DNA of 64,000 nucleotides from an uncultured bacterium (GTDB lineage: Bacteria > Babelota > Babeliae > Babelales > Vermiphilaceae): NCBI GenBank assembly GCA_963713925.1, contig OY970212.1, positions 1,184,001-1,248,000 on the forward strand. The letters run 5' to 3'. This document shows positions 20,771 through 25,875 of this stretch, piece after piece. Within the stretch, counting starts at the first letter, position 1; each line of letters opens with the position of its first letter. A program made the position numbers and the translations under genes. The notes under the pieces are model-generated. The model saw nothing but the letters and a program-made list of their open reading frames with translations, was not told the DNA's origin and ran no database searches.

Positions 20771-21898
20771 ATGCATTCATGGATAGAGATCAACAAGAAA
20801 GCTTTTGAATCAAACGCAGCATTATATCATTCAATAATCGGAACAGAAAAATCGCTCGCTATTGTTTTAAAATCAAATGCATATGGCCACGGGCTTGCCG
20901 TCATGGGTCAACTTGCACAAGAGAACAATAGTATACAATTGTTGATGGTTGCATATCTTCATGAAGCTATCACACTCCGCAAGAATGGCATCTCAAAACC
21001 AATCTTAATACTCAATCCAGTCAGATCTAATCTTGAAGACATCATCACCTATAATGTAAGCATCATGCTAACGGATCTCGATCTGCTACCGCAACTCAAC
21101 GCTATCGCACAAAAACACAACACGCGGCTTCACGTCCATGTGAAAATTGATACGGGATTATCTCGATTTGGGTTTCCAGCTGAAACTATTATTGATACGC
21201 TGCGCGCGATTGCAAAACACAAACATGTCGTCATTGAAGGTTTGTACACTCACTTTGCAGAATCAAATAGTGCCGATTTAACCTACACGTACCATCAAAA
21301 TGATTTGTTCTCTTCTATCATCGATCAATGTATACGAGCAGGCTTTGATATTCGTTATTTCCACAGTTCAAATACCGCCGGAACCACAAGCATTACCCAT
21401 CATCTTGCCATCAACCTTTTTCGTTTAGGCGCCGGATTGTATGGGCTTGAACCATCGCCTGCAACAGCTACTTCTAATTGGTTGCCGAGCACATCGCAAC
21501 GCCCTATTCCGCTACTCGCCTGGAAAACGCGCATCTGTCACATTAAAACTGTTCCAGCCGGAACACCCGTTGGATACAACCGCACATGGCTTGCACAGCG
21601 TGAGACAAAAATCGCCATCATTCCGGTTGGTTATTATGACGGGCTTAATAAAGCATTGAGTAATAAAGCAGTGGTAAAAGTAAAAAATCAGTATGCGCCC
21701 ATTGTCGGACTCATTAGCATGAATGCCGCCATGATTGATATTACGGATATTCCACAAGTGAACCTTGATGACGAAGTCATTTTGCTTTCACCCGACTCTC
21801 AGATCAGTGCACAGCGACATGCGGAAATCACTGGATGCAACAATCCGCGGCAAATTACGTGTGGAATCAATGGTGAATTGGTAAGAAGAACTATATAA
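20771..21898 (+). CDS. alr: Alanine racemase
   Basis: VLKSNAYGHG (PLP Lys), KIDTGLSRFG, YTHFA, VGYN, GYYDG. Confidence 0.95.
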   Translation: MHSWIEINKKAFESNAALYHSIIGTEKSLAIVLKSNAYGHGLAVMGQLAQENNSIQLLMVAYLHEAITLRKNGISKPILILNPVRSNLEDIITYNVSIMLTDLDLLPQLNAIAQKHNTRLHVHVKIDTGLSRFGFPAETIIDTLRAIAKHKHVVIEGLYTHFAESNSADLTYTYHQNDLFSSIIDQCIRAGFDIRYFHSSNTAGTTSITHHLAINLFRLGAGLYGLEPSPATATSNWLPSTSQRPIPLLAWKTRICHIKTVPAGTPVGYNRTWLAQRETKIAIIPVGYYDGLNKALSNKAVVKVKNQYAPIVGLISMNAAMIDITDIPQVNLDDEVILLSPDSQISAQRHAEITGCNNPRQITCGINGELVRRTI

Positions 21899-22014
21899 CG
21901 CAAGGATGTTTATCATCGAACATCGACCCTTAAGTAGCTCTTTTATCATTCACATCTCCCGAAAGGCGTGGTAGATTCTGCTAAAATTAATGTTCACACA
22001 AAGAAAATCAACTT

Positions 22015-22872
22015 ATGAATGGCAAAAACATAAAAAACATCTTGTTTTTATTCTTTTCAATCTTCTATGCGAACATTGCTCATGCAGAAGCTCAAACCGA
22101 CACACATATCGAAGTATCTGTGGGCCATTGCATCATCATTCGTTATCAAAAAAAAGAGCTCATTGCTCATCCACGGCAGAAGTTTTATCTCGCCGAATTA
22201 GACACATGGGTTACGGCAAGCATATTAAAGGCCGGGGACAAGCTCTTTTCAAAAAAGCTCGGTCAGGTTTCGATTGACTCCGTTGAGCTTGTTCCGATTA
22301 AAGACGCTAAAAAACACATAAGCTTCTTTAGATTGCGCAACTTTTTTTTATCGGGTGACTCTATTATCATGTCCAAATCGGATGTGGGTTGGAATAGTGA
22401 TACCATACCGACAGCTTCATCGTGGCCTGAATTCATTATGACGGTTTTAGTCCACCTTACCGCCACTGCGTTGCCATATGTCTTGGATTGGACTATGTAC
22501 CGGATTATGGATTGGATCTTATCGGAATCGGATGAAAAGCATGACTTTGACCGAGAAAATGATGAAGGCGTTACTTCAAAAAAGCATGTCTCGGGATCTA
22601 CTTTTTATGCTCCAATGGTAACTCCGCGGCCGACCGAAGACCCAAAGCCCACTGGATGCCCGACTCCACCACTACCGGCTCCAACTCACACGGGCGGCGA
22701 CCAAATACCAAAAATCGAACCAATTGTTACCATCCCAACCCCAGTACCGGAATCAATATCAAAAGAACCAAAGCCCGGCTGCTTTCCAATTCCATCGCTG
22801 GAAGAGCTCACTCCTCTCGTTTTGACACAAGAAGTCATTCAAGAGCGGCCTACTCCACAAGGCGGAGGATAA
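22015..22872 (+). CDS. Signal-peptide protein with degenerate Hint domain and Pro-rich linker; N-terminal part of a polymorphic toxin
   Basis: AHA-E signal cleavage; QKFY..WVTASILKAGDKL..RNFFL resembles a Hint domain; PTPP-rich linker. Confidence 0.7.
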   Translation: MNGKNIKNILFLFFSIFYANIAHAEAQTDTHIEVSVGHCIIIRYQKKELIAHPRQKFYLAELDTWVTASILKAGDKLFSKKLGQVSIDSVELVPIKDAKKHISFFRLRNFFLSGDSIIMSKSDVGWNSDTIPTASSWPEFIMTVLVHLTATALPYVLDWTMYRIMDWILSESDEKHDFDRENDEGVTSKKHVSGSTFYAPMVTPRPTEDPKPTGCPTPPLPAPTHTGGDQIPKIEPIVTIPTPVPESISKEPKPGCFPIPSLEELTPLVLTQEVIQERPTPQGGG

Positions 22873-23153
22873 AAACGGTTGATGAAATTCTTGAAGGAGC
22901 TATTCCTGGAGCTAAAACAAGAGGTCCTTCAACAATATTCATAAAACCCGGCGATTTTGATGATGCATTGAAAGATTTTGAGCCTCTCAATCCGGTCGAC
23001 ATTGAAGATATTTCAATTGGAAAGAGAGGTTATTTACCTGATGGTCGACATGTAAACGCGCGAAACGAAAGTAAAGATAGTAGAGCAACATTGGAAATTT
23101 ACGATCCAAAAACCGAAAAAAAAATAAAAATTCGATATGGAGATAAACCGTGA
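22860..23153 (+). pseudogene. Toxin-like C-terminal domain, in the -1 frame relative to the upstream ORF
   Basis: KTVDEIL..GDFDDALKDF..GYLPDG..ARN..TLEI..KIKIRY aligns with the C-terminus of 52210-54087. Confidence 0.7.
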
Positions 23154-23557
23154 TTGAAAGTTGGGAGCGATGGGAACCCATACCAAATTTAGCGAGATGC
23201 CATGATGTGGAAAAAGTAGTGGAATCTTTTCAAAACTTTTCGCTGGAGATTATCGAACTCGAAACTGATCAAAACAATAAAATTTTGCTCGATTTCGGTA
23301 AAACTGTGCAAGCATACAGAAATGTTTACGAAACCTTTCGAGTTATGCTTTTCACAAAACTGCGAAACAAATACGGAACTGATTTTTACGCAAATTGGAC
23401 GTTTTTTAAAGTCCAAGATTCCGAATATATAAAATGGATCGAACAAAGATCCAACACATCTTGCTCAAGTATAAAGCTTTCACACTTCAGCTTTCTTTTC
23501 AATGATTCAGTCGTTGATGTTATAGCTTCGCAAGAACCAAAAATTATACTTTTGTAA
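23150..23557 (+). CDS. Putative immunity protein (WERWEP family)
   Basis: GTGA overlap with the toxin stop; paralog of 23579-23995 and 54096-54521. Confidence 0.7.
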   Translation: MIESWERWEPIPNLARCHDVEKVVESFQNFSLEIIELETDQNNKILLDFGKTVQAYRNVYETFRVMLFTKLRNKYGTDFYANWTFFKVQDSEYIKWIEQRSNTSCSSIKLSHFSFLFNDSVVDVIASQEPKIILL

Positions 23558-23578
23558 AAAAATGATTGGATCAATATC

Positions 23579-25156: not shown

Positions 25157-25245
25157 AGGGGAAAAAACCTCGATAAAGGTGCTTACAGACAGGGGAATAT
25201 AGAATATTTTTAATTATGGCAGAAATATCCTAAAAAACAATAAAA

Positions 25246-25323
25246 GCTGAAATTACTAGATACGACAACCCACGACAAATTACTTGTAGGATTAATGGTG
25301 AAATGGTGAGGGTTGTAGCCTGA
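25246..25323 (+). repeat. Displaced copy 3 of the alr 3' end
   Basis: Encodes AEITRYDNPRQITCRINGEMVRVVA*; same length to the stop codon as in alr. Confidence 0.85.
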
Positions 25324-25414
25324 AAAATGTCTCCCCCCCCATTTGCCACCTTTCTACACTTGTGATATTCTAATAGAAATTAGATATCGATGTGGTTTAT
25401 TAGAAAGGAACAAT

Positions 25415-25819
25415 ATGAACACAAAAATAATGGCGGTAGCTCTTTTAGGTCTCTTGGCAATAACCTGTGATTCTCAGGCTATGATGCAGCAAACACTCGG
25501 CAGAAATGTTGTTCGCAGAATAGCCTCTTTGACAAAAAACTCGCATATCCAAAAGCGCTTACATTTTAGCCGACCGGACCATGGAAGAGAAGTAAATCCA
25601 ACTGAAATTAATCCAATAGATGGATTTGTGGCAGGAGGAATTTGTGGACCAATGAGCGGTATGTTATTGACGAATATATTTTCTGATTATAACTCAAACA
25701 TAGCTGTACCAATTTTTCTCATTACAACACCCGCAACAGGCTTCTGGCTTAGCGGCCCGGCCGGAGCGATAGGATCAATCGCCGGTATATGGCTTTATCA
25801 CAAATTCGGTGTTATATAA
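25415..25819 (+). CDS. Secreted hypothetical membrane protein with Arg-rich pro-region
   Basis: SD AAAGGA; signal peptide ending SQA-M; Gly-rich TM segments; terminator at about 25839-25869. Confidence 0.7.
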   Translation: MNTKIMAVALLGLLAITCDSQAMMQQTLGRNVVRRIASLTKNSHIQKRLHFSRPDHGREVNPTEINPIDGFVAGGICGPMSGMLLTNIFSDYNSNIAVPIFLITTPATGFWLSGPAGAIGSIAGIWLYHKFGVI

Positions 25820-25875
25820 AAATCTAAAACTGAAACTGAAATAGCGGCCGGATACAACAGCCGCTATTTATTTTG

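Follow-up and report, generated by a model that had tools for sequence, protein, structure and literature searches.

The 64-kb stretch of DNA analysed here, referred to as the window (positions 1,184,001 to 1,248,000 of contig OY970212.1 in assembly GCA_963713925.1; G000:C1:1184001-1248000), belongs to an uncultured bacterium of the Babelales and raises the question of how the end of one housekeeping gene came to be present several times in a row. The gene is alr, encoding an alanine racemase of 379 aa from the first TTG (window positions 20759..21898, + strand; all positions below are of the window unless a genome is named), which was identified by Pfam Ala_racemase_N and Ala_racemase_C and by TIGR00492 (270 bits, cut-off 168). 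Its final 24-26 codons are present three times in the 1.32-Mb genome, here called G000. We conclude that the repeated alr ends were probably left by two integrase-free additions in succession, the DNA coming from related strains or species.

Tail 1 (21821..21898, +) is the working 3' end of alr, the anchor gene of the array. Tail 2 (24081..24152, +, with a match that may begin at 24072) and tail 3 (25246..25323, +, 78 nt) are stranded alr 3' ends that keep the frame and the position of the stop. The initial annotation, made from the sequence alone, had described this recurrence with equal length to the stop, and its coordinates and translations were confirmed. In the final 72 nt, 60 positions are identical between copies 1 and 2, 48 between copies 1 and 3, and 49 between copies 2 and 3, and the differences fall at the three codon positions as 3/2/7, 7/5/12 and 8/3/12, respectively. 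The synonymous excess that had been noted between copies 1 and 2 holds for the first changed codons (5/7) but not over all of them (5/10). When the alr tail was searched against the whole genome, only tails 2 and 3 matched below E 1e-3 (1e-17 and 2e-9), the next match having an E value of 0.078. No alr similarity was found upstream of ~21818-21827 in copies 2 and 3, and the flanks upstream of these two tails do not resemble each other. The three-way pattern of shared sites switches near the last four codons, a pattern that a slip of one codon also gives.

The genome is a single-contig metagenome assembly, and a frameshift in the toxin-like gene behind alr may be a read error, so that an assembly artefact or a chimera of several strains could be suspected. 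We consider this extremely improbable, since the copies differ by 17-33%, contamination is 0.07%, and the same pattern was found in four other genomes. Contigs of sequencing run X1, which may be the source sample, agree with the assembly at every letter over the end of tail 1 and over all of tail 2 together with the DNA on either side of it. They also match through the joint that precedes tail 3, reaching only ~20 letters into this tail under a 31-letter bridging rule. No joint that skips a cassette was seen in the contigs of three runs, a negative without power, with a depth of 1-4 in the only same-strain run.

The substitutions that separate each gene from its stranded piece bear on where the pieces came from. 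We pooled 23 pieces (13 from G000 and 10 from its kin, 862 codons in all), leaving out a tandem, a toxin tip and a second FAD oxidoreductase piece described below, one identical repeat in the related genome G014, and the 5' hits in the kin. The proportions of synonymous (pS) and non-synonymous (pN) differences were 0.337 and 0.049, giving a non-synonymous to synonymous ratio (dN/dS) of 0.113 (0.073-0.157 in a bootstrap over loci). When alr tail 3 and the longest piece were removed, G000 alone gave a dN/dS of 0.078. An in-place duplicate with one neutral copy should give a ratio not below ~0.5, a value reached in 0 of 2000 bootstraps. A ratio of 0.11 lies far below this, and therefore both copies were probably functional alleles throughout their divergence. 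It is likely from these comparisons that the two copies are alleles of different strains or species, and that the cargo arrived together with the relative's allele. The view of the initial annotation that the tails are former working ends is thereby supported, as is its proposal of repeated insertion with each event displacing the older tail; tail 2 has diverged to pS 0.40 and pN 0.10, and tail 3 to pS 0.73 and pN 0.20.

The same ratio argues against duplication within the genome itself, in which the end of alr or the whole gene would have been copied and then decayed, with the cargo arriving separately. This origin, which predicts a dN/dS of at least 0.5 and is largely refuted by the observed value, we regard as very unlikely, even though the toxin-immunity module behind alr is matched by a paralogous copy elsewhere in G000 (69% nucleotide identity over 1367 nt), the gene past the stranded piece is a cargo paralogue at some loci, and the case of TrkA resembles an eroded longer duplication. 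The alr similarity stops at the tail starts, and long-lived working duplicates of many single-copy core genes are implausible. The dN/dS test thus tells the insertion of a foreign allele from duplication of the target with a single genome.

A search for other housekeeping genes with displaced tails, which the initial annotation had proposed, was positive: in G000 the scar was present at the ends of eight further genes and at the starts of three. Fragments were sought within 20 kb of 997 open reading frames (ORFs) of at least 150 aa. All 12 of the 3'-end fragments lay downstream of their gene on the same strand, with none in mirror geometry. A cargo-free tandem, which we take to be tlyA-like, and a toxin tip were dropped, and the repeat of a SpoU methylase, found first through an opposite-strand ORF, was counted once. 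This left ten displaced tails at nine genes: an FtsY-type gene, the SpoU methylase (395 nt), RodA/FtsW, an ABC transporter, a DUF6629 gene, a Cache-domain protein, two unnamed genes, and alr, which counts twice. The families of these anchors were taken from best hits in the relative G013, and the hits for the ABC transporter and one unnamed gene were only 25-30% identical. Displaced gene starts were found for an SbcC-like gene (171 nt, in which all 23 differences are synonymous and fall at third codon positions), an FAD oxidoreductase (two pieces) and TrkA (83 nt, stranded downstream); the other 5' hits were secreted paralogues and were set aside. Across these loci the cargos measure 0.5-4 kb, and the pieces are 67-97% identical to their genes and often under 100 nt long. 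Synteny with G013 was informative at four loci (SbcC-like, RodA/FtsW, Cache protein and TrkA), where the stranded piece lies on the side of the neighbour that in G013 is directly, or almost directly, next to the anchor gene.

The same scar was present in all four relatives scanned, with three cases in the whole 1.09-Mb genome of G013 and two, four and two in 400-kb samples of G014, G019 and G033, respectively. When the five Babeliales genomes were cut into 16-kb pieces, 17 events were found at 16 genes among 1973 anchors, with 0 mirror hits, compared to one doubtful hit among 529 anchors in a control of 69 loci from other bacteria. The displaced tails in the kin include those of a Mur ligase (133 nt, 97% identical; L166 in G033), an aquaporin-family gene (357 nt; L137 in G019), a CNNM/CBS gene (92 nt; L135 in G019) and an ATP-dependent DNA ligase (62 nt; L067 in G013).

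Several of the G000 loci were viewed individually, and toxin-immunity-like modules were found at three scar loci besides alr. The SbcC-like locus (G000:C1:552372-557939, -) has as its cargo a toxin-like gene that is intact and encodes a C-terminal domain of the family seen at alr, together with two immunity-like genes. At the DUF6629 locus (G000:C1:173255-177850) the tail (71 nt, 97%) is stranded against the uvrB stop, and the cargo is a 674-aa toxin-like gene with five tandem paralogous small genes. At TrkA (G000:C1:683559-688427, -) the geometry is different: the stranded start is found downstream of a toxin-like gene of 812 aa and of three small genes, and the locus is perhaps an eroded whole-gene duplication. 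A second stacked array is formed by the FAD oxidoreductase (G000:C1:427054-431186, +), the start of which has been displaced twice, with pieces of unequal length and three paralogous secreted-protein genes between them. The toxin tip that was dropped (105 nt) belongs to a polymorphic-toxin array of the classical type (G000:C1:1048478-1055427, -) and has its own immunity-like gene. Two tRNA-Arg(cct) genes 1.5 kb apart (G000:C1:703217-705351) may mark a tRNA-anchored insertion.

This spread of targets bears on the claim of the initial annotation that the insertions occurred at a fixed, att-like site inside alr, which was not supported. The targets are many unrelated genes, tails at 18 other loci measure 27-408 nt, and no 5-7-mer was common to 20 junctions beyond random windows (P at least 0.27). 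Of the claimed common start with a core AAT[C/T]ACT, what stands is that the starts of tails 2 and 3 differ by only 3-9 nt; however, the left boundary is uncertain by ~9 nt (tail 2 from 24072 or 24081, tail 3 from ~25246), and the core reads AATCACT, AATCACT and AATTACT in the three copies. Starts that agree within 9 nt, as at alr, occurred in 8 of 153 random pairs of the other tails. The reported lack of an integrase likewise applies to the window, in which no PF00589 or PF00239 match was found, but not to the genome, which encodes two tyrosine recombinases and three large serine recombinases elsewhere.

These recombinases are one reason to consider that the array consists of tandem relics of site-specific islands, similar to cis-mobilizable elements (CIMEs). 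An integrase would have acted at the 3' end of alr, each attP would have provided a new tail, and the integrase and transfer genes would later have been lost. Sites of this kind carry foreign working tails, as seen here, direct repeats that restore the 3' end of the target gene are present at alr, tails 2 and 3 start close together, and CIMEs of 1.2-13 kb are described as stacking at the 3' ends of protein genes (PMC7563491). Nevertheless, we judge such an origin unlikely, as the scar is found at about 20 unrelated targets in five genomes, at starts as well as ends, with pieces of 27-408 nt and no common motif. The agreement of the alr boundaries has a chance of about 5% per pair, and in the second stacked array the pieces are unequal. 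No recombinase was recognised among the scanned scar cargos. The three serine recombinases (L033, L034 and L035) all lie more than 100 kb from alr; two of them end in tRNA genes on the opposite strand (tRNA-Ala and tRNA-Glu), while no tRNA adjoins the end of the third. The two tyrosine recombinases, of ~300 aa each, resemble XerC and XerD. Viral contigs gave 0 matches to the alr-tail pattern, searched as one exact degenerate pattern, and the alr scar was present in 0 of 20 relatives. An element that was lost or not sampled may have acted at alr, and CIME-like accretion is possible for this gene alone, but it cannot cover the roughly 20 unrelated targets.

Two further site-specific systems were viewed at alr. 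One XerD-arm motif, with one mismatch allowed and with the genome's own dif not identified, gave scattered matches and none at the alr joints. An integron array was not supported: the window holds no tyrosine recombinase that could be an IntI, and the cassettes are separated by coding ends of alr, no inverted repeat common to these being among those listed, although no attC model was run.

Under the favoured reading of two integrase-free additions, each incoming piece would bring the alr end of a relative together with a small number of complete genes, and only one side of the entering DNA would have homology to the chromosome. Transformation is a plausible entry because ComEC and DprA are encoded in G000, together with Ku, RecJ and MutS; DprA is present in 56 of the 61 genomes of the order and Ku in 17. 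Two routes could then produce the scar. In the first, toward which we lean slightly, the piece would take the form of a small circle, either by the joining of its ends or by excision between tails that the donor already had, and one RecA crossover in the alr end common to both partners would integrate it. In the second, only a little less probable, the homologous side would pair and the free end would be joined illegitimately inside alr, as in homology-facilitated illegitimate recombination (HFIR). Either would leave alr whole with the cargo behind it and the older end pushed downstream. The M48 peptidase packet would have arrived first and the toxin-immunity packet second; tail 1 was likely supplied, wholly or partly, by the latest insertion, and tail 3, judged by its position and divergence, would be the oldest stranded end. 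Apart from providing new short stretches of homology at which DNA may later be gained or lost, the stranded tails probably serve no purpose. Selection probably explains why the scars favour gene ends, because the anchor gene stays intact only when the duplication includes its stop (or its start).

Both routes have precedents. Among selected clones of E. coli, 56 of 60 are reported to carry a partial gene duplication, of 109-950 bp in the 14 that were sequenced, and the route given is that linear DNA was trimmed, re-circularised and integrated by one crossover (PMC3240628). For rhs genes, circles excised between the attached and the stranded piece and re-integrated by one crossover have been proposed (PMC2935791), and HFIR has been proposed for arrays in V. 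cholerae (PMC5361080). Neither Ku-dependent end joining nor the loss of a repair function was retained as a requirement or cause. Scars occur in G014, G019 and G033, in which no Ku was found (genomes 95-96% complete), and RecJ and MutS are both encoded in G000. A PDDEXK_1 search for AddAB/RecBCD gave one 269-aa frame. None of the ORFs listed around the Ku gene of G000 (G000:C1:300767-301630) is obviously a ligase gene.

Several observations weigh against the reading of integrase-free additions. RecA has a minimal identical stretch of ~20-50 nt, and the longest identical runs at the alr repeats, 16 and 9 nt, are therefore short for it. The close agreement between the starts of tails 2 and 3 is a second such point. 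Re-excision between existing tails, which would hand one boundary to later packets, may explain it. In favour of the reading, long identical runs (42-147 nt) are present in 4 of 20 repeats, not including alr (combined p 0.015), and fit crossover or conversion patches. HFIR is described as generally deleting DNA and not duplicating it (PMC3240628). In G014, before the genomes were cut into pieces, two 3' hits in mirror geometry were found, at a distance of 14-15 kb and with 100% identity. The enrichment over the control is p 0.12 when 15 of 1973 anchors are compared with 1 of 529, and p 0.03 when compared with 0 of 529, in a test that used 15 genes and a control biased to topA regions; a higher scar rate in Babeliales than in other bacteria is thus weakly supported and not established. 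Finally, the neighbours of alr differ in G013, where the synteny check fails at this gene, and no donor, empty site or circle was seen, with no close relative in the genome or metagenome collections. There is no genome of the same genus as G000, and the best alr relative is 47% identical. The tail DNA matched 0 of 200 other genomes of the order, and metagenomes gave one distant locus. Among 45 kin with an alr match, 20 long alr loci were drawn, and none had a displaced alr tail, one of them carrying a 32-nt displaced tail of the neighbouring gene; the result for 30 short loci (0/30) has little power.

The far joint, at which the cargo meets older DNA, is also at odds with the joining of random fragments. 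In 19 of 19 loci it falls 13-164 nt past a whole cargo ORF. These loci were chosen from the scans, 20 having been examined and 19 having a cargo ORF of at least 100 aa, and those in the kin are not independent. The coding density is 0.89, and a random break would fall at such a spot with a probability of 0.15 each, so that random fragments alone do not explain the tidy far joints. A dedicated traffic in cassettes, cutting whole genes at spacers and using a short piece of a core gene as an address label, would account for them, and it would suit the cargo size of 0.5-4 kb and the opposite-strand cargo genes of G000 that face the joint and keep signal-peptide-like starts. We think such a system improbable. 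No motif was found at either end and no candidate enzyme beside any locus, and the ORF test is blind to short truncated remnants. Tidy ends may also come from later trimming by deletion, from a scarless double crossover when the fragment reaches the next shared gene, a process described in PMC5635113 and PMC12359135, or from re-excision between tails (PMC2935791). The same doubt applies to the wider proposal that Babeliales and other small host-dependent prokaryotes would trade whole-gene packets of toxin-immunity and secreted proteins between species as small circles, each addressed by a core-gene end of 30-400 nt and cut at spacers by a dedicated, integrase-free mechanism that could use any core gene.

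The packet between tails 1 and 2 had been called a toxin/immunity cassette, and its content is module-like, but the toxin gene is frameshifted and split over two frames, with the break near 22866-22872. The frameshift could be a read error, the site being outside X1 coverage. The first frame (22015..22872, +) would encode the N-terminal part of a putative secreted polymorphic toxin, with a signal-peptide-like start and a weak pretoxin-Hint match (PT-HINT, E 0.084). The second (22872..23153, +) encodes a toxin-like C-terminal domain of 93 aa, which matched 638 protein clusters (E at most 0.001), sits mostly at the C-termini of diverse proteins among the 150 clusters listed, has four paralogues in the genome, and matched no Pfam family. 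Its predicted model has a mean predicted local distance difference test (pLDDT) score of 95.7, and the best fold match, a tentative one, was a teneurin domain (Z 7.2), a contact-dependent inhibition (CDI) toxin scoring Z 4.2. The nearest named clusters in the Atlas were Ntox37/47/21 at 0.82-0.84, which serve as leads only, and profile hits in the PDB were rejected as artefacts of pentatricopeptide (PPR) repeats.

Two paralogous small genes follow. Immunity-like protein 1 (23150..23557, +, 135 aa) had no relative in one word-index search, and members of its family also follow this toxin-like domain elsewhere in the genome, a position from which its function is proposed. Immunity-like protein 2 (23579..23995, +, 138 aa) is 75% identical to a paralogue at genome positions 76432-76845. 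The GC content of the immunity genes is 0.35-0.36 versus 0.42, and no other cargo is lower. An intact paralogue of the toxin-like gene elsewhere in the genome (L252, 515 aa) has a signal-like start, a pretoxin Hint domain (30.9 bits, cut-off 27.7) and the same two partner genes. The architecture of a secretion signal, pretoxin Hint, variable C-terminal domain and small immunity genes is thus intact in L252 and in pieces at alr, and on this basis the first cassette is probably a polymorphic toxin plus immunity.

Between tails 2 and 3, in convergent orientation, lies the M48 family peptidase of the initial annotation (24209..25156, -, 315 aa), which was confirmed by PF01435 (48.1 bits, cut-off 20.3), has a signal-peptide-like N-terminus and is single-copy in the genome. 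A terminator is predicted for this gene directly past tail 2 (24159..24183, -), a 10-pair hairpin with a T-run that is a consensus match only, in a scan of the region that found 4 such matches against 3.7 expected. Past tail 3 and outside the repeats is a 134-aa orphan with a signal-peptide-like start (25415..25819, +), with no Pfam or NCBIfam match and a weak paralogue at genome positions 61517-61840. The variable region is closed by the convergent core gene topA (26315..28570, -; Pfam). Palindromic dispersed repeats with dozens of copies in the genome lie on both sides of the alr region (20537-20722 and ~25870-26315). Within Alr itself, the usual enzymes carry a 'YE' motif with a role in the active site. 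Babeliales Alr proteins mostly have N[PAV]R[EQ] at this position (window 21840-21860; kin loci L037-L056), Y-E or Y-D being kept in 4 of 22 aligned kin proteins, and in some genomes both Alr types occur in tandem. The substrate range of the Babeliales enzyme may differ.

The alr array works like the C-terminal displacement of rhs, CDI and type VI secretion system (T6SS) genes but is not a member of that group. In the rhs, CDI, MafB and T6SS arrays, as at alr, a homologous incoming piece displaces the resident 3' end downstream (PMC2935791, PMC5361080), and arrays of the rhs type are likewise described as building up with variable piece lengths and no integrase, through a circle or HFIR. In contrast to these, the anchor here is a housekeeping gene, such as alr, FtsY-type, RodA/FtsW, Mur ligase, DNA ligase or SbcC-like; the new end is an equivalent allele and adds no new protein tip, the novelty being the cargo behind it; and gene starts are displaced too, genome-wide. 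The laboratory events of re-circularised DNA and HFIR share the one-sided homology and the partial duplication of a gene end or illegitimate joint, whereas they involve identical homology and, for HFIR, deletions of ~1 kb (PMC3240628). The CIMEs at fda, rpsI, rpmG and rplL in streptococci also have integrase-free cargo of 1-13 kb and direct repeats at a protein-gene 3' end, but they are described as descending from integrative and conjugative (ICE) or integrative and mobilizable (IME) elements, with att sites kept and few fixed targets (PMC7563491), while here there are many targets, variable lengths, no att motif and no cognate ICE/IME found. Gene gain by double crossover beside core genes is similar in lacking mobile-element proteins and in its link to transformation, and differs in that it replaces without a duplicated gene end, whereas the additive gain seen here leaves a scar. 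Small variable segments have been reported as repeat-flanked in 10-18% of cases, with repeats mostly under 30 bp (PMC2884548). In a literature search that covered neither supplements nor most subscription papers, we found no description of genome-wide displaced housekeeping-gene ends, or of such scars in Babelota.

Taken as a single locus, alr exemplifies a kind of displacement that is already known, and the salient puzzle is the far joint that respects gene boundaries. Across the genome, the scars provide a countable signature of one-sided additive recombination, a route that is rare in laboratory measurements. The Babelota are described as a strictly intracellular phylum (PMC12172432), and the terms competence and horizontal transfer did not turn up in the searchable text of two genome papers (PMC6561590, PMC4776705). 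The scars record frequent exchange of DNA between diverged lineages (pS ~0.3) within this phylum, and they represent one way in which these parasites stack toxin-immunity modules and paralogues of secreted proteins.

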